A DNA stretch of 64,000 nucleotides, from contig DASPSR010000008.1 in NCBI GenBank assembly GCA_035623825.1, forward strand, positions 30,480 to 94,479. Direction: 5' to 3'. Origin of the DNA: Nitrospirota bacterium (GTDB lineage Bacteria; Nitrospirota; UBA9217). Below are positions 628-15,095 of the stretch, one piece after another; positions within the stretch are counted from its first letter, which is position 1, and every line of letters begins with the position of its first letter. The position numbers were made by a program, and so were the translations under genes. The notes beneath the pieces are model-generated. The model saw nothing but the letters and a program-made list of their open reading frames with translations. It was not told the origin of the DNA and ran no database searches.

Positions 628-668
628 ATATAAGTGGCACAGAAGCAAATCATATGAGGAGGTCTGTA

Positions 669-1169
669 ATGGGGAAGAGACAGCTTTTATTCGTCACGTA
701 TCGTGATGAAAATATCGAGGAAGGCGTTTCCTACGCCGTCGAGCTCGCCAAGGCGATGTATGAGGATATCACGCTCCTGTTGGTGCAGAAAAGGAGCAAG
801 CTCATGGAAAAGCTTGGGACCCTGATGACAGCAGTGAGCTTTGCCGAGGCCGATGAACATGATACGGCACGGCAGATCATGGCCGGAGTCACTCATAAAG
901 TGCACGGGAACTATGAGAAGAAGCTCGCGGAAGTCATCAAGAAATGTCACGGGGAAGGCATCCAGGTGAATGTCCATAGCACGGACCTGGACGCTGTTAC
1001 CGGCATCCGCACATTTCTGAAGGCGCACGCGGGGATAGACAAGGTCGTTTTAAGCCCGGCGGTGACCGAGGCAGGGAACGTCACCACCAGAGACCTGAAC
1101 CGTCTCGTGCGGACGGCGTCCCGCCCCATCGTTACCATGACCAGGCAGACGTGCGCCGTTGCCGGATAA
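669..1169 (+). CDS. Degenerate universal-stress-like protein of TSUP operons
   Basis: AGGAGG RBS before ATG 669; MTAVSFAEADEHDTARQIM motif; USP-like pattern (LLFVTY...AVELAK...RPIVT). Confidence 0.6.
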   Translation: MGKRQLLFVTYRDENIEEGVSYAVELAKAMYEDITLLLVQKRSKLMEKLGTLMTAVSFAEADEHDTARQIMAGVTHKVHGNYEKKLAEVIKKCHGEGIQVNVHSTDLDAVTGIRTFLKAHAGIDKVVLSPAVTEAGNVTTRDLNRLVRTASRPIVTMTRQTCAVAG

Positions 1170-1250
1170 TGATCGGCATCGCTTGAACACAAGTTTTACT
1201 GGAAAGTCTTAGCTTGCAGTTTACTTTACTATATGAACAGGAGATGAAAA

Positions 1251-2177
1251 ATGTACCTATATCTACCGGTAGCACTGACCAGCATCAATATCCTCATACC
1301 ACTTGGACTGGGACTGGCCGTGGGATTGCTCTCCGGCCTCTTCGGCGTGGGCGGCGGCTTTCTGATGACGCCTCTGCTCATCATGTTCGGCATCCCGTCA
1401 ACGGTCGCCGCGGCGACTGACTCGAACCAGATCGTGGCTGCATCCACTTCTGGCACCTATGCGCACTGGAAGGTCGGGAACGTGGACTTCAAGATGGGGC
1501 TGTACCTCCTCGCAGGCGGGTTTCTCGGCGGGGTCGTGGGCGTCCAGGCGATCAAGCTGCTGCACGCCATGGGCAACGCCGATTTCGTGATCAAGATGAC
1601 CTATGTGCTCATGCTCGGCATCGTGGGCACCTACATGTTCATCGAGAGCCTCCAGAGCATGAAGAAGAAAAAGGGCCCCGCCGTTGAAGAAGTGAAGGAA
1701 AAAAAGGAATCGGCAGTGGGAAAGTTCCTCAAGGCCCTGCCGCTCCAGACCCATTTTGAAAAGTCAGGGATCACCCATTCGGTCCTGGTCCCGATCGTCC
1801 TCGGCGGCTTCGTGGGCGTGCTCGCGGCGATCATGGGCGTGGGCGGCGGTTTCCTGATGGTGCCGATCATGGTCTACATGCTCAGGATGCCCATGCACGT
1901 CGTTGTCGGCACGAGCCTGTTCCAGATCCTGTTTACCTGCATCGAGGTCACGTTCCTTCAGGCCTATACCAACCACAGCGTGGATTTCATCCTGGCGGTC
2001 CTGCTGCTCCTGGGTTCCACGATCGGCGCCCAGGTGGGAGCGGTTTTCGGCAGGAAACTCAAGGCGGACCAGCTCAAGATCCTCCTCGCGGGCATCGTGC
2101 TGGCCGTAACCGTCAAAATCGTATTCGAGCTGACGCTCACACCGTCGCTACTGATTTCACAGGCAGGAGGACACTAA
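1251..2177 (+). CDS. TSUP/TauE/SafE family permease
   Basis: Two GVGGGF(L) repeats and about 8 hydrophobic helices. Confidence 0.9.
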   Translation: MYLYLPVALTSINILIPLGLGLAVGLLSGLFGVGGGFLMTPLLIMFGIPSTVAAATDSNQIVAASTSGTYAHWKVGNVDFKMGLYLLAGGFLGGVVGVQAIKLLHAMGNADFVIKMTYVLMLGIVGTYMFIESLQSMKKKKGPAVEEVKEKKESAVGKFLKALPLQTHFEKSGITHSVLVPIVLGGFVGVLAAIMGVGGGFLMVPIMVYMLRMPMHVVVGTSLFQILFTCIEVTFLQAYTNHSVDFILAVLLLLGSTIGAQVGAVFGRKLKADQLKILLAGIVLAVTVKIVFELTLTPSLLISQAGGH

Positions 2178-2180
2178 TCC

Positions 2181-2987
2181 ATGAAAACGTTCAACGTGAA
2201 ACGAACAAGGTTCAATGTGAAGGGATTCCTCGCTGTCGCCTTCTTGCTGGTCAATTTAGGAGCCGCGGGCACGGCATCTGCCATGCTCACGGCCAAGGCG
2301 AACCATGACCACATCAGCATCGACTTCTTCTATCACGGCAGCACCGTAAGCATCAAGGGAGAAGCCGACCCGGGCGTCGACCTGGTCATTAAAGTGACCG
2401 ACCGCGCGGGCCATCACGTCATGAAACAAAAAGGAAAGGTTGGCGGGCTTCTGTGGATGAACGTGGGAATGCTCAATTTCGAGCGCACGCCGAACTTCTA
2501 CGCCGTCCATAGCACGAGAAAGCTCGAGGACATCTTAAGCCCGGACGAGATGGAGAAATACACCCTCGGGTATCCCGCCCTGGAAAAGCAGGTTGAGGTT
2601 ACGCCGGCCGTGAACGAGGAAGAGAAGGCCAAGTGGTTTGCCGAGTTCGTAAAATACAAGGAAGCCTCAAAGGTCTATGCCTCTTCATACGGGAACATCA
2701 CGACGACGGACACGAAGGACGGGCACATGGAATATTATATCCTGACGGACTGGCCCTACCAGGCGTCGCCCGGCGATTATCTCGTTACGGTCTATGCGGT
2801 CAAGAACGGCAAGGTCGTGGAACAGGCCGAATCAAAGGTGAACGTCGAACAGGTCGGCACGGTCAAGACGCTGGCGACCATGGCCAAGAACAATGCAGCT
2901 TTCTACGGCATCCTTTCGATCGGGATCGCCTTGGGTGCTGGCTTCGGCGTGGGCATGGTGTTCAGGAAGGGCGGAGGTTCCCATTGA
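2181..2987 (+). CDS. TIGR02186-family (Alph_Pro_TM) membrane-anchored periplasmic protein
   Basis: Signal peptide, KGKVGGLLWMN motif and C-terminal TM; usual partner downstream of TSUP. Confidence 0.8.
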   Translation: MKTFNVKRTRFNVKGFLAVAFLLVNLGAAGTASAMLTAKANHDHISIDFFYHGSTVSIKGEADPGVDLVIKVTDRAGHHVMKQKGKVGGLLWMNVGMLNFERTPNFYAVHSTRKLEDILSPDEMEKYTLGYPALEKQVEVTPAVNEEEKAKWFAEFVKYKEASKVYASSYGNITTTDTKDGHMEYYILTDWPYQASPGDYLVTVYAVKNGKVVEQAESKVNVEQVGTVKTLATMAKNNAAFYGILSIGIALGAGFGVGMVFRKGGGSH

Positions 2988-3850
2988 TGTTCAGCTCGAT
3001 TGTAGTGGGATATGACGAGTCGCCGTCGAGCAGGGCGGCGCTCAAAGAAGCTACCCTCTGGATAAAGAACCACGGGGGACAGCTCTTCCTCGTTCACGCG
3101 GTCTACTTCGACCAGGAGGAGTTCACGACTCTGCCTTCCCAGAGGGAGAAGCGATTCGAGATCGGGACGAAAATATGTCTGGAGGCGAAGAAGAGCCTCC
3201 GCGATGAGTACGGCCTGAACGGCAGCATCGAGTCGCTCATGTGCGAGGGCGAGCCGCACGACGTGATCGTGGACATCGCCCGGGGGAAGGATGCAGACCT
3301 TATTGCTCTCGGCACCTACGGCAGGAAAGGGCTCAAGCGGCTGCTCATGGGCAGCGTGACGTCGCAAGTCATCCTGAATTCACCCTGCGATGTGCTCGTG
3401 GTCAAAAAGCCGTGCTCCCAGTGCAGCGGGAGCTACCATTCCCTGCTGGTCCCCTTCGACGGGTCCGAGATGAGCAAAAAGGCGCTGACCCGCGCCTGCG
3501 AATTGTCGAAGGTTGACGGCGCTGAGATCTCGGTCCTGTACGTGATACCCCGGTACGAGGAGATGATGGATTTCTTCAAGACCGAGAACATTAAGAAGAG
3601 TCTCTACCAGGAGGCGGAGAAGATAGTCGAGGGAGCGAAGAGGCTCGCGGCGGGGCTGGGAGTCCCGATCAAGGCGGTTGTGCAGGAAGGCCATGCCGGG
3701 GACAAGGTCGTGGAGATCGCCGACACGATTAGGCATGATCTCATCGTCGTGGGCACCCACGGATGGCGGGGCGTCAACAAGGCGATCATGGGGAGCACGG
3801 TGGAGCGAATCATTGCCTATGCCTCCTGCCCCACGCTGATCGCGAGGTAG
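2987..3850 (+). CDS. Universal stress protein (tandem USP domains)
   Basis: ATG 2987 overlaps the upstream TGA; IVVGYDES, GTYGRKG..MGSVT and GTHGWRG..MGSTV motifs. Confidence 0.9.
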   Translation: MFSSIVVGYDESPSSRAALKEATLWIKNHGGQLFLVHAVYFDQEEFTTLPSQREKRFEIGTKICLEAKKSLRDEYGLNGSIESLMCEGEPHDVIVDIARGKDADLIALGTYGRKGLKRLLMGSVTSQVILNSPCDVLVVKKPCSQCSGSYHSLLVPFDGSEMSKKALTRACELSKVDGAEISVLYVIPRYEEMMDFFKTENIKKSLYQEAEKIVEGAKRLAAGLGVPIKAVVQEGHAGDKVVEIADTIRHDLIVVGTHGWRGVNKAIMGSTVERIIAYASCPTLIAR

Positions 3851-3953
3851 ACGGCGCCTGGCGGCCCGGACGGTCCTTGACGAGGCGAGATGGCGGTTCG
3901 ATGAACTGCGGTATCAGAAAATCATGGCATCATGAGAAGGAGCGTGATATATT

Positions 3954-4376
3954 ATGAGAGGTTTTAGAAAGGTTCTTATCGCACTGAACGGATCCAAACA
4001 GGTCCTGGAACAGGGCATCAGGCTTGCCAAGGACGAAAAGACATGGATCACGGTCGTGAAGGTTGTCCGGCCCTTTGACGGAGAACTCAACCTGACGGGC
4101 ATCAAGAACCTGGGCGATGTCCTGGACGACGGGGCCGCCGAGGCCGTTTCCGTTATCAATGAGGTAGCCGACGCCGAGGGCGCAATGGTCAAGACGCGGC
4201 TGGAATCGGGCGACGTGCCGGACAGGATCGTGGAGGTCGCGGCTGAAGAAAAGTGCGATCTCATCATCATGGGGTCGAAGAAGAAGAAAGGCATCCTGAG
4301 CAGGCTCTTCGGCGATCATGTCGTGGAGAAGGTGATCGACCGCGCGCCCTGCCCGGTATACGTTGTCGGAGTATAG
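3954..4376 (+). CDS. Universal stress protein
   Basis: VLIALNGS, DLIIMGS and FGDHVVEKVIDRAPCPV motifs. Confidence 0.9.
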   Translation: MRGFRKVLIALNGSKQVLEQGIRLAKDEKTWITVVKVVRPFDGELNLTGIKNLGDVLDDGAAEAVSVINEVADAEGAMVKTRLESGDVPDRIVEVAAEEKCDLIIMGSKKKKGILSRLFGDHVVEKVIDRAPCPVYVVGV

Positions 4377-4519
4377 AGAAAAAGGGGTTTGAGTACGGCG
4401 CGACCACGGCTCTGCGCGGTCGCAGCGGGGGATTTCCGGCACGGCGCATCCGTCCGGCATCATGATGATGCAGCAGCCTGAAGCGCTTTGCCCGCAGAGC
4501 GGCTAAAAAAGGAGCAAGT

Positions 4520-4708
4520 ATGTTCGAAGGCTTGGCACAGCCAATGCACCTTATCCTGATACTGCTCATCGTTTTGATCTTCTTCGGCCCGGGGAAGCTC
4601 CCGGAGCTCGGCGAGGGCCTCGGCAAGAGCATCAAGGCGTTCAAGAAGGCGATGAAAGAGGGGCCGGACGCCCCGGCAATAGAAAAGAAAGAGGATAAGA
4701 AAGCTTAA
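4520..4708 (+). CDS. tatA: Twin-arginine translocase TatA/E subunit
   Basis: LIFFGPGKLPELGEGLGKSIKAFKKAM signature; AAGGAG RBS. Confidence 0.92.
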   Translation: MFEGLAQPMHLILILLIVLIFFGPGKLPELGEGLGKSIKAFKKAMKEGPDAPAIEKKEDKKA

Positions 4709-4957
4709 TCCGCGCGGGCGGGACGTTCAAAGAAGCAGCGGATGAAGAAACAGCGGCCTTAAGGGACAAGCGAACGATTGCGTGATCCTGGCAGCTTACA
4801 TTCGACGGATCATTGATTCGGACGGGCAATGCCACACGCCGAAATAGACCTCGCCAACAGCATCTACCGATTTCTCGACACGCCGGACAGATTTCTTTAC
4901 AAAAACGATTAACCACCGTATTATTATATAGTGAGGCAAGGTCAAGGGGCTATTTCC

Positions 4958-6610
4958 ATGATCAGGGATAAATTCAATAGACTGCTCCGTCTGGGGGTCC
5001 TCTCCGAGGTGGATCTGGACTCGATGGAGCGGGAAACGACAGCCACGGGGATAGCGGTCGAGGAGCTGATGATCCGGCAAGGGATCCCGAAACACGAGGT
5101 CCTCTTCTGCCTTTCGGAATATTACGGCTATCCGTTCGTTGAGTTCGATGAGGACGTGGCCGCATCCTATTATCTGGTCATGCGGCTCGACCTGGAGCAC
5201 CAGAAGAGCGCCCTGTGGTTTCCTCTCTCCGTGCGAGAGAAAAAAGCCGAGGTCATCGCCTGCCGTCCCGACGACGAGCGTGTGATCGAAGACATCAAGA
5301 AAACGCTCGGAGTGGAGCAGATCGACTTCCGCGTGTCGCTTCCGACCGACCTCATCCGCATCATCGAGCATAATTTTGACGTGAACCGCAATTTCCTGAT
5401 CTCCGGGGGCCGGACGCCGCTCGCGCGTGTGAGGACGTTCCTCGCCTACCAGCGGTCGACCTACGCGCATTACCGCACGCACTTCGCCAAAGGGCGGACG
5501 GGTCTCGCCTTCATACGGACCGGCGTCTCCTTCATCGTCATCGCCCTTCTGTTTTTGCGCGTCCTGGGGGCCGGGTTCTACGCGCTCCTGGAAGCACCGC
5601 TCTTCGTTGCAGGCGTCATCATGGTCTACGACGGGATCAAATGGTATCTGCCCGCCCGGAAGGTCGCGGGCAGGCCGGTTGACGCCGCCTGCACGGATCC
5701 GACATGGGGCACCTGCGTGCTGAGCGCGGATGTGAGGGACGGCCGCCCGGTCATCACGCGGACAAAAGAGATTAAGGGGGCGGGGGAGCACAGGGCCGAC
5801 TGGGAGAATCTCTCGCCCGTGATGCGGAGAAGGTTCCTGGCCAGCGACCGGACCGATATGGCCGAGGAGCGGACGTCGCTTGCTGGTCACCGGACGAAGC
5901 TCGCCCGGGCGCGGACGGGACTCGCCTTTACCAGGACCGGCATTGCCTTCACCGGTCTCGGCATAGCGCTGATGCGGCAGTTTGAAGCGAGCCGGTGGTC
6001 GGCGTGGTCGGTCTTGGATGTCGCGCTGATCGTCGCGGGCATTCTCATGTCCGCCGAGGGCTTTTACTGGTATTTCGGCGGGCGCAGGTCCGGGATCGAG
6101 GGCTTCCGGTCCGTCATGGCGGGACTCAACAGGGAAACGATCTGGGACCTCGTGTTTCCGCCTGGCCACAAGCGATCGGGGCCAGGCAAGGACAGGCCGG
6201 GTCCGCCGGTCACCGCGAACCAGAAGCCGGGCATCTGGGCCACGACAGGCCACGCCCTGGAACGGACGGTGCTTGCCGACCGCCGCGGCGTCATGGCAAG
6301 GCTCCGAACCGTCATGGCGGTGGCTCGGACGGGGATGGCGTACATCAGGACGGGTATGAGCATTACGTCCGTCGGCGCGGGACTGATGGCCTATTTCGGC
6401 GTCGCCTCGCCGGGCTGGACCGTCTTCAATGCCCTGCTGATCATAGGCGGGCTTCTCCTGGTCGCGGACGGGTACCGCTGGATGCTTCCCGCCGAGCGCA
6501 TGAGGAAGGAGTACCCGTACTGCTACGGGGATATGGAGATAACGATTCCCGATTACGGAAGACCGAACTCTGAATGGGGAACGGTCGTTTTTAACCAATA
6601 TGACGCATGA
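4958..6610 (+). CDS. GspE/PilB N-terminal (T2SSE_N/MshEN-like) domain plus 3 DUF202-like Arg-heptad/TM-hairpin repeats
   Basis: N-terminal LSEYYGYPF...WFPL...IAC.PDD pattern; three RT.LA..RT.LA..RTGLAFxRTG repeats, each followed by two TM helices; no Walker A. Confidence 0.75.
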   Translation: MIRDKFNRLLRLGVLSEVDLDSMERETTATGIAVEELMIRQGIPKHEVLFCLSEYYGYPFVEFDEDVAASYYLVMRLDLEHQKSALWFPLSVREKKAEVIACRPDDERVIEDIKKTLGVEQIDFRVSLPTDLIRIIEHNFDVNRNFLISGGRTPLARVRTFLAYQRSTYAHYRTHFAKGRTGLAFIRTGVSFIVIALLFLRVLGAGFYALLEAPLFVAGVIMVYDGIKWYLPARKVAGRPVDAACTDPTWGTCVLSADVRDGRPVITRTKEIKGAGEHRADWENLSPVMRRRFLASDRTDMAEERTSLAGHRTKLARARTGLAFTRTGIAFTGLGIALMRQFEASRWSAWSVLDVALIVAGILMSAEGFYWYFGGRRSGIEGFRSVMAGLNRETIWDLVFPPGHKRSGPGKDRPGPPVTANQKPGIWATTGHALERTVLADRRGVMARLRTVMAVARTGMAYIRTGMSITSVGAGLMAYFGVASPGWTVFNALLIIGGLLLVADGYRWMLPAERMRKEYPYCYGDMEITIPDYGRPNSEWGTVVFNQYDA

Positions 6611-7838
6611 ACTGAAAAACGATGACCTTTTGGACGCAGCCGTGCAGCAGGGCGTGGAATTTTCCCTTCTGGTCGAAGGGGGGCTCTTAAGCCCTGCCGC
6701 TCTCGAAGAAGCGGCAAGCAGGGCCCAGGCGAGAGGCATCGCTCTCGAAAGGGTGCTGCACAGGGAATACGGCATAGCCAAGCAGGACCTGCTCAAGGCG
6801 CTTTCCGGATACTATAAATGCGCTTCCATCGAATATGACGAAAGGTTGCCGATCCCGCCGGAACTCTTGAATCTCAGCCCCGACTCGCTCTCGACGTACC
6901 AATGGATGCCCGTCATGAAGGACAAATCCGGCACGGTGGTCATCGCCGCGAGGAATCCCGAAAGCCAGGCGATGCGGTCGGACGTAAAAAGATTGATTGC
7001 GGCTGACAGGTTCGAGTTCCGCGTTTCGCTCGACCCTGACATCCAGTGGTACATCCAGGATTTTCTCCATGCGAAGGTGGGGCTCCTGATCGGAACTGAG
7101 CGGACGGGTCTGGCCTTCTGGCGGAACACGATGGCCCAGTGGCGCACGAGGATGGCCTGCTACCGGACCGATCTTGCGAAAGCAAGGACCGGCCTTGCCT
7201 TCATGCGGTGGGGGTTGGGCATGATCGCGCTCTCGAACGCGCTCCTGCAATCGAAGAGCACGAGCAGCAATCCATACCTGTATTTTTCGGTGCTCATCGC
7301 GGGCATCGTCATTTCCTTTTACGGTCTTCCCCAGTATCTGAACGTCCGGAAATCCCGGCTCACTCCTCCTGGCAACCAGACGCTGGTCGAGGTCACGGCG
7401 GCAACGATCCAATTCCTCGAAAATTATCATTTCATCGAGGGTACGGGTACGAGCCGGGAGACGCAGGGAACGATGCTTGCGCGGATGGGCGATTATCTTG
7501 CCGACCATAGCACCTATCTCAGCCCGACCCCGTCGAGCAAGACGCGCACCATGTTCGCCCGTGAGCGGAACGTATTGGCGGCCCAGCGGACGATCGCGGC
7601 CTGCTATCGCACCATCTATGCCCGGGCAAGGACCGGGCTCGCGTTCATCCGGACCGGAATCTCCTTCACGAGCATCGGCATAGGCATTTTGAGTTATTTC
7701 GGGTTCGGCCTGCTCACCTCGTTCAATATCTTGCTCATCGCAGCGGGGCTTCTGATGCTCGCGGACGGCGCGCTCTGGTACTGGCCCGTCAGAAAGGAGC
7801 AAGCGGAAATTCCGAGGGGCATTGCTTATCCCGAGTGA
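6600..7838 (+). CDS. Paralog: T2SSE_N-like domain plus 2 DUF202-like repeats
   Basis: Overlaps the upstream stop; LSGYY...WMPV...VIAARNP pattern; two Arg-heptad repeats with TM hairpins. Confidence 0.75.
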   Translation: MTHELKNDDLLDAAVQQGVEFSLLVEGGLLSPAALEEAASRAQARGIALERVLHREYGIAKQDLLKALSGYYKCASIEYDERLPIPPELLNLSPDSLSTYQWMPVMKDKSGTVVIAARNPESQAMRSDVKRLIAADRFEFRVSLDPDIQWYIQDFLHAKVGLLIGTERTGLAFWRNTMAQWRTRMACYRTDLAKARTGLAFMRWGLGMIALSNALLQSKSTSSNPYLYFSVLIAGIVISFYGLPQYLNVRKSRLTPPGNQTLVEVTAATIQFLENYHFIEGTGTSRETQGTMLARMGDYLADHSTYLSPTPSSKTRTMFARERNVLAAQRTIAACYRTIYARARTGLAFIRTGISFTSIGIGILSYFGFGLLTSFNILLIAAGLLMLADGALWYWPVRKEQAEIPRGIAYPE

Positions 7839-7984: not shown

Positions 7985-9424
7985 ATGAAGATCGAAAAGA
8001 AAATCATCGTTACGAACGCGATCAACGCCGGATTGATCATCCTGATCGGCCTCTTTGCGCTTCAGAACATGAACCATGTTCTTACCAAGCTCAGGTTCGT
8101 GGAGATCGCCGACGATTTGAACGCTTCGTTTCTGGAAATGAGGCTTTCGGAGAAGAATTATTTTCTGTACAAGGACAAGACGGCGCTTCCCGCCATCCAA
8201 AGCAACATAGAAAGGACAGCAGCAACGATCAGGGGCGTACGCGAGGATATCATCCGCGCAATCGGCGAAAGCGAACTCGCGAAGCTGACGGGCCACCTCC
8301 AGTCCTATTCGTATGTCGTCGACGAAGCCGCGAGGGGAAATCCGAGCGACACGGAGCTTGAATCGCGGCTCCGGACCGAGGGGAAGGCGCTGAAGGAATT
8401 TTCAGAATCCATCACGAACCTTGAACGGAAGCGCGTCAACGACATCATCGCGAGTTCGAAGTACATTCTGATCTTCTCCTTCTGGGTGATCCTCGCTTTC
8501 GCGCTGCTGATAAGCCATTTTATTTCGCAGAAGATCGTGCGGTCGCTCCGGGAAATCGAGAAGCTGGCGAAATCGATCTCCGGGGGCAATTTCCACAGGA
8601 TAGAAGGGTTCCAGTCGAACGATGAGCTCGGATCGGTCATCACGGCCATCAACTCCATGTCCGAAGAGCTCGGCCACCGCGAAGAGCAGCTCATCCAGTC
8701 CAAGAAGCTCGCATCGCTCGGCATCCTCACGGCAGGGGTGGCCCATGAGCTCACTAACCCCTTGAACAACATCTCGATGATCGCCCAGACCTATGCGGAA
8801 CTGTACGACAAGCTGAGCGGCAGTGAGCGTGTAGAGTTCATGAGCAAGGTCGAGGAGGAGACGGAGCGGATTCGGAAGATCGTCAAGAACCTCCTCGATT
8901 TTTCCAAACCGAAGGACGCTCATCCGAAGGAAGCGGACATCAACGCGGTCATCCAGAAGACGCTTACCCTGATGCAGAACATGATCGACGTCTCAAACGT
9001 CGAAACGACGGTCAATCTCTATAGCGCATTGCCGCATGTATATGTCGATGAGCATCAGATGCAGCAGGTGCTCGTGAACCTCATCACCAACGCGGTCCAG
9101 GCCATGTCGGCGGGAGGCAGGATCGTCATATCGTCGAGGCTCGGGAAAGGCGGGGAATCCGTCGAGGTCGGAGTGGCGGACACGGGCAAAGGCATCCCGC
9201 CCGAGTTCCTGCCGCATATCTTTGACCCCTTTTTCAGTACCAAGGGCGACGGGGGCACCGGCCTTGGGCTGTCGGTCAGTTACGGGATCATCAAGAACCA
9301 TAAAGGAGACATCCGGGTGGAAAGCAAAGTGGGGGTCGGGACGACCTTCACCATCGAGCTGCCGAGGTACAATCAAACAATAGAGGAGAAGATCGATGAA
9401 CAGTCACAGGATCATGGTCATTGA
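7985..9424 (+). CDS. Membrane HAMP sensor histidine kinase
   Basis: 2 TM, HAMP, H-box GVAHELTNPL, N box, DTGKGI, FDPFFSTK and GTGLGL. Confidence 0.92.
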   Translation: MKIEKKIIVTNAINAGLIILIGLFALQNMNHVLTKLRFVEIADDLNASFLEMRLSEKNYFLYKDKTALPAIQSNIERTAATIRGVREDIIRAIGESELAKLTGHLQSYSYVVDEAARGNPSDTELESRLRTEGKALKEFSESITNLERKRVNDIIASSKYILIFSFWVILAFALLISHFISQKIVRSLREIEKLAKSISGGNFHRIEGFQSNDELGSVITAINSMSEELGHREEQLIQSKKLASLGILTAGVAHELTNPLNNISMIAQTYAELYDKLSGSERVEFMSKVEEETERIRKIVKNLLDFSKPKDAHPKEADINAVIQKTLTLMQNMIDVSNVETTVNLYSALPHVYVDEHQMQQVLVNLITNAVQAMSAGGRIVISSRLGKGGESVEVGVADTGKGIPPEFLPHIFDPFFSTKGDGGTGLGLSVSYGIIKNHKGDIRVESKVGVGTTFTIELPRYNQTIEEKIDEQSQDHGH

Positions 9425-9764
9425 CGACGAAAAGATCGTGGGCGACATGGCAAAGCTGTCGCTCGGGCAGGAAGGCTACATTGTCGAGACCTTCCTCAAT
9501 GCCGAGCCGGCGCTGGCGAGGCTCAAAGAGGAGAAATTCAATGTCGTCGTCACCGACTACAAGATGAAGGGCATAGACGGCATGGAGGTCCTGCGGACGG
9601 TGAAGAAGCTGTACCCCGAGACCAAGGTCATCATGATCACTGCCTTCGCCAACCTCGATGCGGCCATCGAGGCCCTTCGGGGTGACGTGCACGACTTTTT
9701 CCCCAAGCCCGTAAAGATCAAGGAGCTGAAGGAATCCATACGGCGCGCGCTGAGCAAGCCCTAG
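9396..9764 (+). CDS. Single-domain response regulator
   Basis: IMVIDDE, VVTDYKM, MITAF and PKP motifs. Confidence 0.9.
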   Translation: MNSHRIMVIDDEKIVGDMAKLSLGQEGYIVETFLNAEPALARLKEEKFNVVVTDYKMKGIDGMEVLRTVKKLYPETKVIMITAFANLDAAIEALRGDVHDFFPKPVKIKELKESIRRALSKP

Positions 9765-9874: not shown

Positions 9875-12457
9875 ATGAAAAGCGGTTTTTTGCAATCTTT
9901 CCTGGCTTCGATGGCCAACGTGTCGGCCTTCAGGAAGTATCCTGCGGACGCCGAGCAGTTCAGGGCCGTGTTCGACCGCTTCAAGAAAGTGCTCGACAGC
10001 AACAACCGGGCGCTCGAAACGATCACGGACATGGGCGAGAAGCTGGGCGGGGACTACCTGTTCGACATCATGTATATCAGGAAGGCCTACTCCGAGCTCA
10101 AGGGCGACCTCGAGCGCTCCATCCGGAATTTCGACGAGCTCACGCACCGCCGGTATGTGCGCCTCCACGACGTGTTCGCACGCATTGACTCCCTGATCCA
10201 GCAGATGGTCTCCGATGCACAGCCGTCCTTACAGGAGCCGCTCCTGTTTTTTGAGGATATCCCCTGGGGGATGGTGCGGGAGGTCGGCGGCAAGAACGCC
10301 CATCTCTCGGAGGTCAAGAACCGGCTGACCCTGTCTGTTCCCGACGCTTTCGTCCTGACGACCGCGGCCTATGATGAATTCATGCGCGCAAACGGGCTCG
10401 AAGAGCGCGTGGCGCGCATCGCACGGGACCCCCTCTCCGCTGCCACCGCGCTCCAGGAACTGCAGGAGCTCGTCATGCACGGGTCTGTCCCTCCCCCCCT
10501 CGGCCGGGCAATCGGGAAGGCGGTGCAGAAGATCAAGAGCCGTAACGGCGATTGCTATCTCGCGGTACGGAGCAGCGCCGAGGAAGAAGACAGCGGCCGT
10601 TCATTCGCAGGGCAGTTTAAGACCATCCTGAACGTCCCGCTCGATATCGAGGCGCTGGAGCGGGCGTATCGGGAGGTCATCGCGAGCCTCTTTTCTGAAA
10701 AAGCCGTGGCCTATGAGCGTCAGATGGGGTACGAGCCGGGGAACCTGAAAATGGCGGCAGGGTGCATGGTCATGGTGGATGCGGTGTCGAGCGGTGTCAT
10801 GTATTCCACGGCGCCCGATGGCGACAGGGACGCCCTCATCATCAGCGCCGCATGGGGACTGGGAGAGGCCGTAGTCGAGGGGAAGACCGATGCCGACCTC
10901 TACAGGGTCAGGAAGGGTCAGCCCCATGATCTCTTAAGCTCGGTGATCGGGAAGAAATCCCTCATGATCTCTGGTTTGGACGGGGGCGGAGTGGCCGAGG
11001 CCGAAACTCCTGATGACCTTCGCGGAAAACCATGCCTGACCGCAGTGCAGGCGGCGGAGCTCGCATCTTCGGCTATCAAGATCGAGAAGTACTTCGGGAG
11101 CCCCCGGGATATCGAATGGGCGATCGGCAAGGACGGGACGATCTTCATTCTCCAGGCGCGCCCGCTCACCATCGCCCGGGAGGACCAGGGCGAGGTACCT
11201 GTGGAGCATCCGGCCCCTGAATCAGGGACAGCGTACCCGGTTCTGATAAGGAACCGTGGCAGCGTGGTGCAAAAAGGGGCGGGCGCGGGGAAGGTCTTTT
11301 TGGTACGGACAAAGGACGATCTGGATGATTTCCCGAAGGGGGCAGTGCTCGTTGCGAAGCACGACTCATCGCTGTACGTCCGGGTCATGCCGTTCGTGGC
11401 CGCGATCATCACCGAAACCGGAACGCAGACCAGCCATATGGCGGCTCTCTGCAGGGAACTCAGGGTCCCGGCGATCGTGAACGCAGCCGGTGTCACGGAG
11501 ATCCTGAAACCGGGACAGGACATCACCCTCGTCGCAGGAGACGATGGCACATCGGCCCTCTATGAGGGGATCATCAGGGATCTCATTGCCGGGGCCGGGC
11601 AGGGCAAAGCGGGGATGGAGGATGTCCATGAATACCGCAGGAAGCGGTACATCCTGCGGTACATCTCCCCCCTTAACCTTGTGGACCCGCTGATGGAGGA
11701 GTTCACTCCGGAGGGGTGCCGGACCCTGCACGACATCCTGAGGTTCATACACGAAAAATCCGTCGCGGAGCTTGTGGACAGCGCGCGCGAGGGGAACGTC
11801 AAATTCAGGAAACAGGGGACGCTCATCCCGTTGGAACTTCCAGTGCCCGCCGGCATCGTGGTGATGGACATGGGCGGCGGTCTGGATATCGGGGGAGACG
11901 GCAGGCGGGCGACATTCGAAGAGATCACGTCAGTCCCTTTCCGGGCGATCATCAGGGGCATGCTGCATCCCGGGGCCTGGCACTCGGAGCCGGTCGCCCT
12001 GAAAGCCCATGATCTTCTTTCGAGCATGATGCGGATGCCGGACATCGACAGCGGGAACCCTGCCGGATACAATCTGGCGGTCATATCCCGCGAGTATGTG
12101 AACCTGAGCATAAGGTTCGGGTACCACTTCAATATGATCGACTGCTACTGCGGCGAGAAAGCGAAGAACAACCACATTTACTTCCGTTTCCTGGGCGGCG
12201 CGACGGACATGGTAAAGCGTTCGAGGAGGCTGGAGCTCATAGCGAGAATCTTGCGGGAGTACGGCTTCAATATCAGGATAAAGGGGGACCTCCTCATCGC
12301 CCGCCTCGCGGGCCTTAACCCGGAAGAGATGGAGAAGGTGCTCGACCAGGCGGGAAGGCTGATATCCTATATGCGGCAGCTGGATGCCGTGATGCACGAT
12401 GATGCGGCCATCGAGCGGCATGCGAAGAATTTTTTAGCAGGCGTATACACGTATTGA
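9875..12457 (+). CDS. PEP-synthase/pyruvate,water dikinase-like protein (nucleotide-binding plus phospho-His swivel domains)
   Basis: VGGKNAHL, AVRSSA.EED...SFAGQF, DIEWA, LQARPL and TSHMAALCRE (phospho-His); the C-terminus is not the canonical PEP-binding barrel. Confidence 0.82.
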   Translation: MKSGFLQSFLASMANVSAFRKYPADAEQFRAVFDRFKKVLDSNNRALETITDMGEKLGGDYLFDIMYIRKAYSELKGDLERSIRNFDELTHRRYVRLHDVFARIDSLIQQMVSDAQPSLQEPLLFFEDIPWGMVREVGGKNAHLSEVKNRLTLSVPDAFVLTTAAYDEFMRANGLEERVARIARDPLSAATALQELQELVMHGSVPPPLGRAIGKAVQKIKSRNGDCYLAVRSSAEEEDSGRSFAGQFKTILNVPLDIEALERAYREVIASLFSEKAVAYERQMGYEPGNLKMAAGCMVMVDAVSSGVMYSTAPDGDRDALIISAAWGLGEAVVEGKTDADLYRVRKGQPHDLLSSVIGKKSLMISGLDGGGVAEAETPDDLRGKPCLTAVQAAELASSAIKIEKYFGSPRDIEWAIGKDGTIFILQARPLTIAREDQGEVPVEHPAPESGTAYPVLIRNRGSVVQKGAGAGKVFLVRTKDDLDDFPKGAVLVAKHDSSLYVRVMPFVAAIITETGTQTSHMAALCRELRVPAIVNAAGVTEILKPGQDITLVAGDDGTSALYEGIIRDLIAGAGQGKAGMEDVHEYRRKRYILRYISPLNLVDPLMEEFTPEGCRTLHDILRFIHEKSVAELVDSAREGNVKFRKQGTLIPLELPVPAGIVVMDMGGGLDIGGDGRRATFEEITSVPFRAIIRGMLHPGAWHSEPVALKAHDLLSSMMRMPDIDSGNPAGYNLAVISREYVNLSIRFGYHFNMIDCYCGEKAKNNHIYFRFLGGATDMVKRSRRLELIARILREYGFNIRIKGDLLIARLAGLNPEEMEKVLDQAGRLISYMRQLDAVMHDDAAIERHAKNFLAGVYTY

Positions 12458-12459
12458 CG

Positions 12460-13518
12460 ATGCCAGAGAAAACTACCGACAAGAAGACTATAACCCTTAC
12501 GAGGTCATTCCTGGCCGTTCTCCTGCTCGCGACCTTTGCGTTCGGGGCGTTCATCGGCAGGGGCACAGGGATGCTCGGGGGCATGTATGAGACGAGCAGC
12601 GAAGAACGGACGGCCGATACGGGCGGCTCGTTCAGGTTCATACGGTCCTCTTCGGTGCACGGCAGTCCCGGCGGAACGCGCGCTTTCCAGGATCTGAAGC
12701 CGTTCCGCTATAAGGTCGATGCGCTCATCCAACGCAAGGTGAGCTCGGGCGATGCGTCGACTGTATCCGTTTTTTTCCGCGACCTGGTCGGCGGACACCG
12801 CTTCGGCATACGGGAGCAGGAGGCCATTGCTCCTGAAAGCCTTCTGAAACTCCCCCTGATGATCGCCTACTTTAAATGGGCGGAGTCAGACCCCCGCGTT
12901 CTTCGGAGAAAGGTCACCTATGCCGGCAGCGATGACAGGTCGGAACAGCAGAGCGTGCACGCCGCCAAGCCTCTCGAGAGGGGCAGGTCCTATTCCATCG
13001 ACGATCTGATCCTCAGGATGATCGCGTATAACGACGGCGATGCCCATGCGCTTCTGATGGCCAACCTGCCGCCGGGCCATCTCGACAGGGTCTATAAGGA
13101 TGTTTACGCAAACTACGACCCGGCAAAAAAGGACGAGGTAGTGACGCTCACCGCATACGCTTCGTTCTTCCGCGTGCTGTACAACGCTTCCTATTTGAAC
13201 AAGAACATGTCCGAGAAGGCCCTCCGCTATCTCTCACGGTCTGCGTTCAGGGACGGTGTCGTCGCGGGCATTCCCTCGAACGTCGACTGTGCGATAAAGT
13301 TCGGCGAGCGGACAGTGCAGGCCGAAGCGGGCGGCGAAAGCGGAGAACGGGCAGTGAAGCAGCTCCATGAGTTCGGGATCATTTACTACCCAAACCGCCC
13401 CTTTCTTATCGGGGTCATGGCGCGCGGCGAGGACCCCGGAAAGCTGGCGAATATCATGCGTGAAATCACCTCCCTTATATACGAAGAGGTGGACCGGCAA
13501 CTGAGGACGTCAGGGTAG
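12460..13518 (+). CDS. Class A beta-lactamase-fold serine hydrolase (membrane-anchored, degenerate motifs)
   Basis: SxxK (SLLK); the SDN position reads NDG and the KTG position reads KFG; N-terminal TM. Confidence 0.7.
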   Translation: MPEKTTDKKTITLTRSFLAVLLLATFAFGAFIGRGTGMLGGMYETSSEERTADTGGSFRFIRSSSVHGSPGGTRAFQDLKPFRYKVDALIQRKVSSGDASTVSVFFRDLVGGHRFGIREQEAIAPESLLKLPLMIAYFKWAESDPRVLRRKVTYAGSDDRSEQQSVHAAKPLERGRSYSIDDLILRMIAYNDGDAHALLMANLPPGHLDRVYKDVYANYDPAKKDEVVTLTAYASFFRVLYNASYLNKNMSEKALRYLSRSAFRDGVVAGIPSNVDCAIKFGERTVQAEAGGESGERAVKQLHEFGIIYYPNRPFLIGVMARGEDPGKLANIMREITSLIYEEVDRQLRTSG

Positions 13519-13877
13519 CGAATGCACGATTCAGCTTGATTTTACGGTTTTGATAGAGTTATCATATGAGGACAAAATCCAGCATGCCAGCGATTACCAT
13601 AGAATAGCGAACCCAAGGAAAGCTGGGCTGTAATCTTTAAACGGCATGGCTCTCAATTTTGAACCGAAAGATACATTGCATGAATATCCGCTGCAGGCCC
13701 TGACCCTTCTTACGGATTCCCCGACGGGTTCCAGCTTGAGAAGCTCATCCCGGAAAAATCAATACATCAGGCTTGTGAGGTCGGGCAGGGAGACTGGGCA
13801 CGCGTCAATCCCTTGCCGCCAAGCGAGCACGCTTTAAAGGGCAGAACCATGTCGTGCGCCAGGAGATCATTTCTAAA

Positions 13878-15095
13878 ATGAATAACGCGTCCCCTTCCTT
13901 TTTTAGGAAGCATAGAAAAATAAACATTTGCTTATTCTTGATGATCGGCATTGTGGGTTTCGTGCTCGTAAACGTGAAGGTGAACATTACCCGCAATTAC
14001 GAGGGCATATTCCTGTTGAAAGGAAAGGACGGTGCCTTCCTGGAAGTGAAGGATGACCTCTTCCTTGGCGAAGAAGACCGGTATATCGCCGGGATCGATC
14101 TTGAGCGGGAAAAGCGTTTTTTGAACAGCCTGTTTGATGCCCACGCCGACTCTACGACAAATGGGCCCTCGTTGTATTATGAATGGAACAAGAAATGGGG
14201 CGAAGGCTTCGTCCGCAACTATCTACCCGGCGGGAAGCAGCTTCTCACCGCGTTCAGCAGATTCATCGACGACGGCGGCAAGGTAGTCCTCGGAGTATTC
14301 GTAGGCGGCGGATTGCCTGCGAACATTCGAGACGACGACATAGTGAAAATGAACGAGACCGGGATGGCTTATTACGACGGTGTGCGATGGTACCACATCT
14401 GGTGCAACGTCAACGAGCTGATCGCGAACTCCCGGAATGAAAGCATATTCCCGTCCGAGTGGAAGTATTTAGGAAGCCGCGTGCTCCATCATAACCCCGA
14501 GGATTTGTTCTTGGAGAGCAGTCATGAAATAATGATCGACGGGGTGCCTCTGAACATGATCCGGACTGCTATTTTCAAGGCCGGTGAAATGTACTTTGTC
14601 CTTACGATCAAGATAACCAACGTGGGCAGCAGGGCCGCAACCTATTACTATCTTTACGGGGACGAGCCGTGGCTGGGTAACTACGGAACGTCGGGAGGTA
14701 ACATCGGCTGGTCTTCGGATGGCGTATCTCAAGAGCTGTTCCAATATAAAGGAAGGATCAACACGAAGAAGCTGCATTACGCCGGATTGTGGGACTATGG
14801 GAACGATGTGATCGGCGAAGGGCATGAATTCACCCGCACCGCTAACTTCATCGAGTGGTTTGGGAATATTAGGCCGGACGTCTTTTTTTCCAATGGACCC
14901 TATGATTTTCCGCAAATCAACGAAAAGCGAGTGCCCCTCTCCAGCAATATGAGATTCCTGGCGGTCCAGTGGGGGCCGCGGACGCTGAAACCGGGGCAGT
15001 CAGAAACATATACCCTGGCGATCGGCATGGCGGGACATGACCCGAAAAGCGGGTTCCCGGTGAAGCCCAAGATAGATCTGAAAAATTTCCCGTAA
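13878..15095 (+). CDS. Conserved hypothetical membrane-anchored periplasmic protein (beta-rich)
   Basis: AGGAG RBS at 13861; single N-terminal TM; 405-aa open frame rich in aromatic residues and Gly. Confidence 0.7.
   Translation: MNNASPSFFRKHRKINICLFLMIGIVGFVLVNVKVNITRNYEGIFLLKGKDGAFLEVKDDLFLGEEDRYIAGIDLEREKRFLNSLFDAHADSTTNGPSLYYEWNKKWGEGFVRNYLPGGKQLLTAFSRFIDDGGKVVLGVFVGGGLPANIRDDDIVKMNETGMAYYDGVRWYHIWCNVNELIANSRNESIFPSEWKYLGSRVLHHNPEDLFLESSHEIMIDGVPLNMIRTAIFKAGEMYFVLTIKITNVGSRAATYYYLYGDEPWLGNYGTSGGNIGWSSDGVSQELFQYKGRINTKKLHYAGLWDYGNDVIGEGHEFTRTANFIEWFGNIRPDVFFSNGPYDFPQINEKRVPLSSNMRFLAVQWGPRTLKPGQSETYTLAIGMAGHDPKSGFPVKPKIDLKNFP

Follow-up and report, generated by a model that had tools for sequence, protein, structure and literature searches.

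DUF202 (PF02656) is a widespread membrane family, and to our knowledge its bacterial members have no known function. The closest described system is the eukaryotic VTC polyphosphate channel, an assembly of three Vtc1 subunits with Vtc3 or Vtc2 and with Vtc4 (7YTJ, 8I6V). According to the passages of PMC9911596 that describe this channel, it is formed by five first transmembrane helices (TM1); its upper wall carries the residue pairs K24/R31 (Vtc1), K622/R629 (Vtc4) and K698/R705 (Vtc3), and its narrowest point is a ring of Arg residues. In each of these pairs the two residues are 7 apart, and this is also the spacing of the Arg residues (heptad position a) in the products of two overlapping genes, A (4958..6610, + strand) and B (6600..7838, + strand), that we describe here. 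The genes lie in a stretch of 64 000 nt of a Nitrospirota genome (assembly GCA_035623825.1, contig DASPSR010000008.1, positions 30 480 to 94 479), referred to below as the window. Together they encode five DUF202 units, three in A and two in B. We consider A/B to be a phospho-regulated, enzyme-linked conduit or binding track for anionic, probably phosphorylated, species, a reading to which we assign a probability of about one half.

Five arginine-ladder units in two genes

Gene A was derived from an open reading frame (ORF) at 4931..6610 (+), with the start set at ATG 4958, a choice backed by orthologs; its product has 550 aa. The product of gene B has 412 aa, and the genes overlap by 11 nt, as the ATG of B at 6600 precedes the TGA of A at 6608-6610. 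The two proteins are paralogs (32% identity in 388 columns, E 6e-49). Pfam MshEN was matched by residues 56-141 of A (E 1.4e-8, 35 bits) and residues 81-157 of B (34 bits; cut-off 23.1 in both cases), while DUF202 was matched by three stretches of A (66.9 bits) and two stretches of B (34.4 bits; cut-off 23.4). A DUF202 scan of the whole genome returned the same five places; one of them, at 23.3 bits, falls short of the cut-off and the other four exceed it. The Pfam scan of the two proteins reported no ATPase family. With NCBIfam we saw nothing for A and only sub-threshold matches for B, including TIGR02538 at 16.5 bits (cut-off 675.65), limited to the N-terminal part and insufficient to call a T2SSE ATPase. 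The first-pass annotation had described overlapping paralogs with a GspE/PilB-type N-terminal domain, no ATPase and a count of three plus two DUF202 repeats, and in these points it was correct.

In A, the N-terminal domain of MshEN/GSPII fold (residues 1-147, 4958..5398; Pfam MshEN and Foldseek) is followed by unit A1 (5399..5668; ladder R152-R187 with six Arg, helices 152-203 and 209-237), unit A2 (5816..6127; ladder R291-R326 with six Arg, helices 287-341 and 349-390), unit A3 (6227..6511; ladder R436-R464 with five Arg, the first layer being occupied by Thr429, helices 424-480 and 485-518) and a C-terminal tail (residues 519-550, 6512..6607) with the conserved YPYCYGDMEITIPDYG and two short strands. 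In B, a similar N-terminal domain (residues 1-163, 6600..7088; aligned to MshE by VIA-align) precedes unit B1 (7089..7361; ladder R168-R203 with six Arg, helices 164-217 and 225-254) and unit B2 (7536..7802; ladder R316-R351 with six Arg, helices 313-367 and 373-401). All these features are on the + strand. The AlphaFold2 models (mean pLDDT 80.5 for A and 75.3 for B) show five helices that are very long (52-57 residues) and that each lead on to a second helix, giving two membrane helices per unit, i.e. six in A and four in B. Both in the sequence and in the models every Arg run passes into two hydrophobic helices, the membrane hairpin that had been expected for each repeat.

The spacing-7 runs add up to 29 Arg residues. 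A recount gave 6, 6, 5, 6 and 6 for the successive repeats, exactly the numbers originally reported, and the string R-TPLARV-R-TFLAYQ-R-STYAHY-R-THFAKG-R-TGLAFI-R, quoted as an example of the repeat, corresponds to residues 152-187 of A. For either protein, the observed Arg-run count was reached in 0 of 2000 residue shuffles. When 64 A and 64 B sequences were aligned, all ladder Arg but one proved invariant (28 of 29); the exception, R189 of B, is conserved at 98%. Heptad position a is Arg in 100% of cases, b is Thr in 95%, d is hydrophobic and e is Ala in 93%. The ladder stays in register as it enters TM1, where position a is the least hydrophobic one (mean hydropathy -0.35) with residues T/G/S/A/S at +7 and R201/R340/V/Q/S at +14; R201 and R340 are conserved at 98%, and Ser, Thr and Gly are conserved as well. 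The net charge of the five stalk segments is +32. In ladder layers 4-6, proximal to the membrane, Arg is preceded by Tyr/His, a small or a hydrophobic residue and never by an acid, so that the 15 Arg of these three layers are uncompensated. As the membrane-proximal layers have no acidic partner, we infer that they may serve as anion-binding rings.

At least 992 relatives of A were found at E ≤ 0.001 (8000 candidates scored); where their source labels carry a name, it is 'YidH/DUF202' or 'hypothetical'. Among the titles listed by a full-text literature search there was none on bacterial MshEN-DUF202 or tandem DUF202 proteins. To see how units are distributed over genes, we surveyed 77 related loci, 78 sources with the window, counting units and N-terminal domains with purpose-built hidden Markov models. 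In 64 of the 78 sources a 3-unit gene is directly followed by a 2-unit gene, and these sources span Nitrospirota, Thermodesulfobacteriota, Pseudomonadota and Actinomycetota. Five loci with a different count are considered below; the other nine sources are contig ends, frameshift-like splits of the 3+2 arrangement and one locus (L068) that has an intact 3+2 pair with no detectable N-terminal domain in its A. Repeat totals do not vary freely, and neither gene stood alone in any intact locus; free variation and solitary genes were among the outcomes that the first-pass annotation had named as refuting its proposal.

The five units are not interchangeable. In a maximum-likelihood tree built from 38 units (seven sources, four phyla) there is one group per position (support 88/43 for A1, 100/99 for A2, 100/99 for A3, 100/100 for B1 and 93/88 for B2), and position labels change along it four times, which is the minimum, against 23.6 times with shuffled labels. 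One group per position means that the five positions had already become distinct and fixed when the family began to spread. Such five conserved positions support a pseudo-pentamer, with the ring itself being a predicted structure.

In a sample of 301 genomes of the window's phylum, 58 genomes had matches to the A profile. In seven of them the match was to the N-terminal domain only, in ORFs of ∼770 aa, which leaves 51 carriers. The window's own family accounts for 37 of the 51, the window genome included, and within genera the presence of the gene is patchy. In the 43 carriers with near-full-length A (≥500 of 547 model positions) a B-type match follows 20-70 bases further downstream, on the contig and strand that carry A. 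One metagenomic A-type protein of 399 aa (P0134) has two units only, the ladder of unit 1 being apparently joined to the hairpin of unit 2; from its sequence it may be either a deletion variant or an assembly artefact.

A predicted ring and its recurrent partners

We predicted the A+B complex from residues 145-550 of A and 160-412 of B, which comprise the Arg helices and the membrane parts, with purpose-built alignments. The ipSAE value was 0.72 (0.67, 0.72 and 0.74 in individual runs), while the best of three controls reached 0.00; the mark applied to this score was passed by 58 of 80 solved complexes and by 2 of 110 mismatched pairs, a calibration that is rough for alignments of our own making. 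At least 82% of contacts were common to the runs, and partner pLDDT was 60-62. The helices are predicted to pack in parallel, with unit A1 contacting B2 and unit A3 contacting B1; the A2 helix contributes 0 of its 56 residues to the A-B interface, and residues 521-540 of the A tail lie inside it. Positions a, b, e and f of A1 face g, a, d and e of B2, positions g, a, d and e of A3 face a, b, e and f of B1, and cross-chain Arg-Arg contacts are predicted for R173-R337 and R450-R182. Because of these contact faces, the g,a,d,e face of a unit i is expected to meet the a,b,e,f face of unit i+1. Such pairing would allow a single cyclic order, A1-A2-A3-B1-B2-A1, and positions a (Arg) and e (Ala), being common to both faces, would point at the axis. 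Thus, the five units probably close into one ring with Arg residues facing the axis. The five-helix tube that had been proposed for a 1:1 heterodimer has gained a prediction that passes its controls, ring-type contacts and the placement of Arg on the shared face; it is still a prediction, with a partner pLDDT that is only 60-62.

Downstream of B, on the same strand, there are genes for a sensor histidine kinase (7985..9424; HAMP-HisKA-HATPase_c by Pfam, its N-terminal region matching no family), a receiver-only response regulator of 122 aa (9396..9764; Pfam) and a PPDK-like phosphotransferase of 860 aa (9875..12457), in which an N-terminal region without a match, an ATP-grasp domain and a phospho-His swivel domain are followed by a C-terminal domain of ∼290 aa, also without a match. 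We used the window neighbours in tblastn searches against the 77 loci (query cover ≥50%). The histidine kinase was found at 61 loci, the receiver at 60 (median identity 84%) and the PPDK-like gene at 41, flank length being limiting for the latter; genes for TauE, Alph_Pro_TM and Usp proteins were found at 35-39 loci, mostly from Nitrospirota. The order A-B-histidine kinase-receiver-PPDK-like is kept in the Actinomycetota locus, and Thermodesulfobacteriota loci have up to three PPDK-like paralogs around A/B. In one of these, L064 (Hydrosulfovibrio ferrireducens CB1MN), A/B is flanked (881-6007 and 10589-13156) by genes for an additional histidine kinase and for three PPDK-like paralogs, of 848, 860 and 856 aa. 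In the 301-genome sample, close orthologs of the PPDK-like C-terminal domain (E ≤ 1e-99) were present in 46 of 51 carriers versus 4 of 250 non-carriers, and in several carriers the ortholog is on a contig other than that of A/B. The genomes are related and hence not independent, and the contrast does not amount to a statistical test. The tie of A/B to the receiver and the PPDK-like enzyme is far tighter than the tie to the TSUP genes. The pair had been placed between a TSUP operon and a PEP-synthase-like gene; both are present, but the kinase and receiver genes intervene before the enzyme. The receiver is probably a subunit or a regulator of the A/B complex.

The same partners were met in a second architecture. 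A search with the unit profile against 1.84 billion representative proteins gave 2875 matches at E ≤ 0.001. Among the best 150 of these 2875, we saw 10 three-unit proteins, 11 two-unit proteins and many single-unit proteins or fragments, and no long-ladder protein with four or five units. In a sister class, a single unit carries 8-20 heptads. Its member P0152 combines heptads and DUF202 with a full receiver domain after the hairpin (E 1.2e-27), and this fusion after the second membrane helix implies that both termini are inside and the stalk is cytoplasmic. We also looked at sister loci from Desulfobacterales/Desulfobulbia metagenome-assembled genomes (MAGs) (L085-L095, match at ∼6001-7080), where the gene product has an N-terminal coiled coil, ∼12 RT heptads, one hairpin and a fused receiver. 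The sister gene is followed by a full-length PPDK-like gene at 11 of 11 loci with downstream DNA (L085-L095; a further locus, L084, ends early). The products of the latter genes have 30-34% identity to the window enzyme, from residues ∼20-35 to ∼853-859 of 860, and the fused receivers have 34-47% identity to the window receiver. The triad of membrane unit, receiver and PPDK-like enzyme recurs in two independent architectures, an association that is new here.

Several other matches were set aside. P0207 and P0216 are soluble ER[DE]xLxx coiled coils without a membrane hairpin. Thirteen matches with one N-terminal domain and one unit were not accepted as a real architecture: P0154 is a B-type fragment, and other short 'single-unit' matches may be fragments too. 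P0236 (DUF202, half a receiver and PPDK_N) has the appearance of two adjacent genes joined in frame and was taken as a hint of adjacency only.

The partner enzyme shares with PEP synthase, PPDK and rifampin phosphotransferase the ATP-grasp PPDK_N domain and a phospho-His swivel domain with TSH; unlike in PEP synthase and PPDK, PEP-utilizers_C was not reported in it by Pfam. Its scores against PEP synthase models are far from the cut-offs, 312.9 bits for NF005057 (cut-off 598), over residues 123-568 only, and 295.5 bits for TIGR01418 (cut-off 739.75). For the C-terminal 290 aa and the N-terminal 120 aa no family or solved chain was matched, and a protein-atlas search with the C-terminal domain returned unnamed or 'PEP-utilizing' clusters only. 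A profile of 15 C-terminal domains against PDB and Pfam gave nothing meaningful (best 2joi_A at E 1.3; Pfam at E ≥ 0.05). Still, this domain has 25 invariant columns, including C45, H49, D50, R53, H56, E57 and the FRFKGGAA stretch.

Both N-terminal domains have the MshEN/GSPII fold. For A, PilF-GSPII and MshE were matched by Foldseek (probability 1.00; target TM-score 0.65-0.67); for B, VIA-align matched MshE (5htl_B, Z 15.0, rmsd 3.7, 138 residues aligned). Since fold-search matches include complexes of the PilB N-terminal domain with PilZ and of EpsE with EpsL, the N-terminal domains of A and B are, by analogy, likely docking modules.

We propose that A and B would be two subunits of one inner-membrane complex, with one A and one B contributing five adjacent DUF202 units, arranged in the cyclic order given above. 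The five long first helices would form a parallel five-helix bundle, the axis of which would be lined by six Arg layers (29 Arg at position a) and by Ala at position e. The bundle would reach ∼50 Å into the cytoplasm and continue through the membrane as a small, polar-faced TM1 ring, the same module and the same count as in the TM1 pore of VTC. The two MshEN-fold domains would dock partners, and the complex would not be a receptor for cyclic di-GMP (c-di-GMP). The partner receiver, free in the window and fused in the sister class, would be phosphorylated by the adjacent sensor kinase, and the PPDK-like His-phosphotransferase would act with the complex.

Some evidence on expression came from metatranscriptome library X1, in which we found short contigs identical to 5482-5710 and 5811-6099 of A (DNA carry-over is possible) as well as near-identical contigs for the receiver and enzyme genes. 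The word share was 0.18, with 7 of 30 bins uncovered, including all three before 5213, and no contig among those listed bridges two genes. We consider this a weak indication of A transcription.

Upstream of A, genes with Pfam matches occupy 1251..4376 (+) and are lineage-restricted: TauE/TSUP (1251-2177, +), Alph_Pro_TM and tandem-Usp and Usp ORFs, with three Usp-domain ORFs being counted. In Nitrospirota the block extends over 654-4376 and consists of a 171-aa ORF without a Pfam match, TauE/TSUP, Alph_Pro_TM (TIGR02186 family), a tandem-Usp ORF and a single Usp ORF. Genes of the block occur at 31-39 of 77 loci, and the block was also seen at one Thermodesulfobacteriota locus, L074. The non-coding gap before A (4377-4957, 580 bp) gave no Rfam match at E ≤ 1 in a scan of 4200-5100. 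On the other side, an ORF of the Beta-lactamase2 family (12454-13518) shares 4 nt with the end of the PPDK-like gene and is followed by a 413-aa ORF without a Pfam match (13854-15095); both were found in 0 of 77 related loci.

Possible roles: conduit, scaffold or polymer exporter

A number of observations weigh against an anion conduit built as a five-unit ring. The axis-facing orientation of Arg was deduced from contact lists of one predictor, at a partner pLDDT of 60-62, and, as VTC structures are public, the success of the prediction may mirror a learned likeness rather than binding. Counter-ions would be needed in a bundle that buries 29 Arg and whose net charge is +32. At five loci (L015, L016, L017, L044 and L062, one of them split) the count is 3+3+2; at L015 the extra 3-unit paralog is a recent copy according to the unit tree. 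Sister stalks of 8-20 heptads would be unusual in a simple ion channel; a structural stalk or a track for a polymer suits them better. Five of the 51 carriers have no close ortholog of the enzyme, all five being fragmented assemblies of 170-460 contigs, and at one locus from a Gammaproteobacterial MAG (L046) the flanks have no histidine kinase, receiver or PPDK-like gene. The L046 flanks code for GMP synthase, IMP dehydrogenase and M23 peptidase upstream and for two ORFs without a Pfam match (264 and 949 aa) downstream.

The relation to VTC has its own difficulties. Vtc1 has three transmembrane helices, against two membrane helices per A/B unit. When the profile of 38 units was searched against PDB sequences, no VTC chain was matched at E ≤ 10, the best match being a TetR regulator at E 0.07, and even the canonical DUF202 protein of the same genome was similar to Vtc1 only at E 0.75-1.1 over ∼25 residues with an ANERTFL motif. 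In whole-protein fold searches (Foldseek for model A, VIA-align for model B) the matches listed for the membrane parts were ABC-exporter or generic helical bundles, VTC not being among them; for B, VIA-align gave syntaxin at Z 10.3 and MRS2 at Z 7.3. The resemblance suggested in the first-pass annotation stands as far as the DUF202 family, the count of five and the 7-residue spacing of basic residues are concerned, while it lacks a direct sequence match and the number of helices per unit differs.

It is possible, though we think it rather unlikely, that nothing crosses the bilayer and A/B is a scaffold or sensor, with an Arg stalk that binds an anionic ligand or polymer, or is just rigid, and that tethers or regulates the enzyme and the receiver. 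The variable stalk length, from 5-6 heptads here up to 8-20 in the sister class, is reminiscent of signalling or structural stalks, and tight linkage and fusion to a receiver, adjacency to the enzyme and an N-terminal fold known for protein docking (PilB-PilZ and EpsE-EpsL among its matches) would all be natural for a scaffold. The TM1 a/e face, rich in small residues, would suit tight helix packing equally well. However, there is no break in register where the ladder passes into TM1, conserved polar or charged residues (R201, R340, Ser, Thr and Gly) accompany it there, and 15 uncompensated Arg residues beside the membrane would be costly if scaffolding were the only role. Also, for VTC, whose ring is homologous, the structural account of PMC9911596 describes a channel.

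A more specific proposal, to which we attach a small probability only, is that the PPDK-like enzyme makes polyphosphate or another phosphorylated polymer by means of its phospho-His domain and feeds it into the Arg ring for export. Ring, receiver and enzyme would then be an independently assembled bacterial counterpart of VTC, with the polymer threaded through the Arg tube under two-component control in lineages where PPK1 and PPK2 were not found; we regard such a parallel as correspondingly improbable. The membrane module and the count of five are those of VTC, an ATP-using phosphotransferase is obligately coupled to it, and the C-terminal domain of the enzyme has an invariant Gly-rich stretch with a set of Arg, His and Asp. 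Besides, the usual synthases are scarce in carriers. Neither PPK1 nor PPK2 was found in the window's genome (89.65% complete), in which there is one gene of the Ppx/GppA family. In the 301-genome sample PPK1 was present in 51 genomes and PPK2 in 90, almost all from families with no A/B found, and among the carriers the counts were 2/51 and 0/51, with 49 of the 51 showing neither. This scarcity cannot be used as an argument for gene displacement: in family f1, regardless of carrier status, PPK1 was seen in 1/63 and PPK2 in 0/63 genomes, and, since non-carrier relatives also lack both, the absence is a clade trait. Furthermore, we know of no polyphosphate polymerase of dikinase type, the C-terminal domain of the enzyme matches nothing known, and Ppx/GppA enzymes may act on (p)ppGpp instead. 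The PPK counts in carriers weaken polyphosphate, one of the anions named at first, as the cargo; ordinary PPK-made polyphosphate appears doubtful, and the distribution may leave room for a product of the PPDK-like enzyme.

Very unlikely, in our view, is an arrangement in which the Arg helices rest flat against the inner leaflet, as amphipathic anchors for anionic lipids, and no ring is required. The helices are indeed very basic and beside the membrane, but Arg occupies the middle of the d-a-e stripe, which by its position is core geometry, unlike the edge position in a surface amphipathic helix. The conservation of Thr at b and Ala at e (93-95%) is that of a packed core, the helices are packed in parallel in the predicted complex and each of the five positions is individually conserved.

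As to gating by c-di-GMP, PMC5013675 places tandem 24-residue motifs, RLGxx(L/V/I)(L/V/I)xxG(L/V/I)(L/V/I)xxxxLxxxLxxQ, in the N-terminal part of MshEN. The motif as worded there was present, in strict or relaxed form, in 0/64 A and 0/64 B sequences, and A orthologs of Thermodesulfobacteriota type (∼507-513 aa) are shorter at the N-terminus, where the motifs would be placed. A channel opened by c-di-GMP bound to the N-terminal domains, as was originally suggested, has in its favour their MshEN fold and a weak match of B to the NCBIfam c-di-GMP_motif (20.9 bits, below the cut-off of 38), but, with the motif absent from all 128 sequences, it is not supported and is the least credible of the alternatives.

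The phospho-regulated conduit or binding track for anions remains our preferred explanation. The A/B pair would give the DUF202 family a testable quaternary rule, five units per ring, and concrete partners, a receiver and a PPDK-like enzyme. Should an anion indeed be conducted or bound by the ring, sulfur-cycling anaerobes would have a regulated conduit for anions or polymers of a new type, and a branch of the PEP-synthase superfamily that is still uncharacterised would become accessible. The L064 carrier, H. ferrireducens CB1MN, is recorded as a strain and not as a MAG, and genetics may be feasible in it.

Comparison with known systems

The N-terminal domains of MshE, PilF, PilB and XpsE have the same fold as those of A and B; in A and B no ATPase follows, and the c-di-GMP motif is missing (0/128).

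Single-unit DUF202 proteins such as YidH belong to the same Pfam family as A/B, and differ from it in having one unit, two Arg, three hydrophobic helices, and neither an N-terminal domain nor tandem repeats. The window's genome also has a canonical protein of this kind, outside the window (contig C48:7490-7732; locus L078:1393-1794; - strand), with 133 aa, a ANERTFLAWIRT motif, three hydrophobic segments and 77.4 bits to PF02656. For YidH itself, the part of PMC10299036 that deals with its overexpression states that D-alanine levels were not lowered.

The layout of stalk, TM1 and TM2 is shared with CorA/MRS2, as an analogy rather than homology. CorA has a cytoplasmic N-terminal domain, a very long stalk helix continuous with the pore-lining TM1 and a hairpin completed by TM2, with five units around one axis. 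CorA is homopentameric, its cation funnel is acidic and its TM1 ends with a GMN signature, whereas the predicted A/B ring would be a 3+2 pseudo-pentamer lined by Arg, and the GMN signature is absent from A and B. The structural match of MRS2 (8ts1_A) to residues 163-374 of B (Z 7.3, rmsd 9.4, 140 residues) is within noise for helical proteins.

VTC is the closest case. Both assemblies have five DUF202 units and an ERT-type motif, and in both the first helix of each unit lines the axis (in A/B by prediction) with basic residues 7 apart. Unlike VTC, in which the units come from five chains, A/B has two chains (3+2), a ladder of 5-6 Arg per helix reaching far into the cytoplasm, a receiver and a PPDK-like enzyme as partners, no SPX or TTM polymerase domain, and a bacterial host; SPX and TTM Pfam families were found in none of A, B and the ten neighbours scanned. 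A third arrangement is seen in P0210 (476 aa) and the only homolog that we found for it, P0273 (487 aa, 49% identity). These proteins, from contigs of ∼2 kb, have five DUF202 units in one chain, the units being shorter, with 2-3 RT heptads and a hairpin each. Judged by sequence, five units per assembly are reached in three ways: by five subunits in VTC, by three plus two units in A/B and by five units in a single chain in P0210 and P0273.

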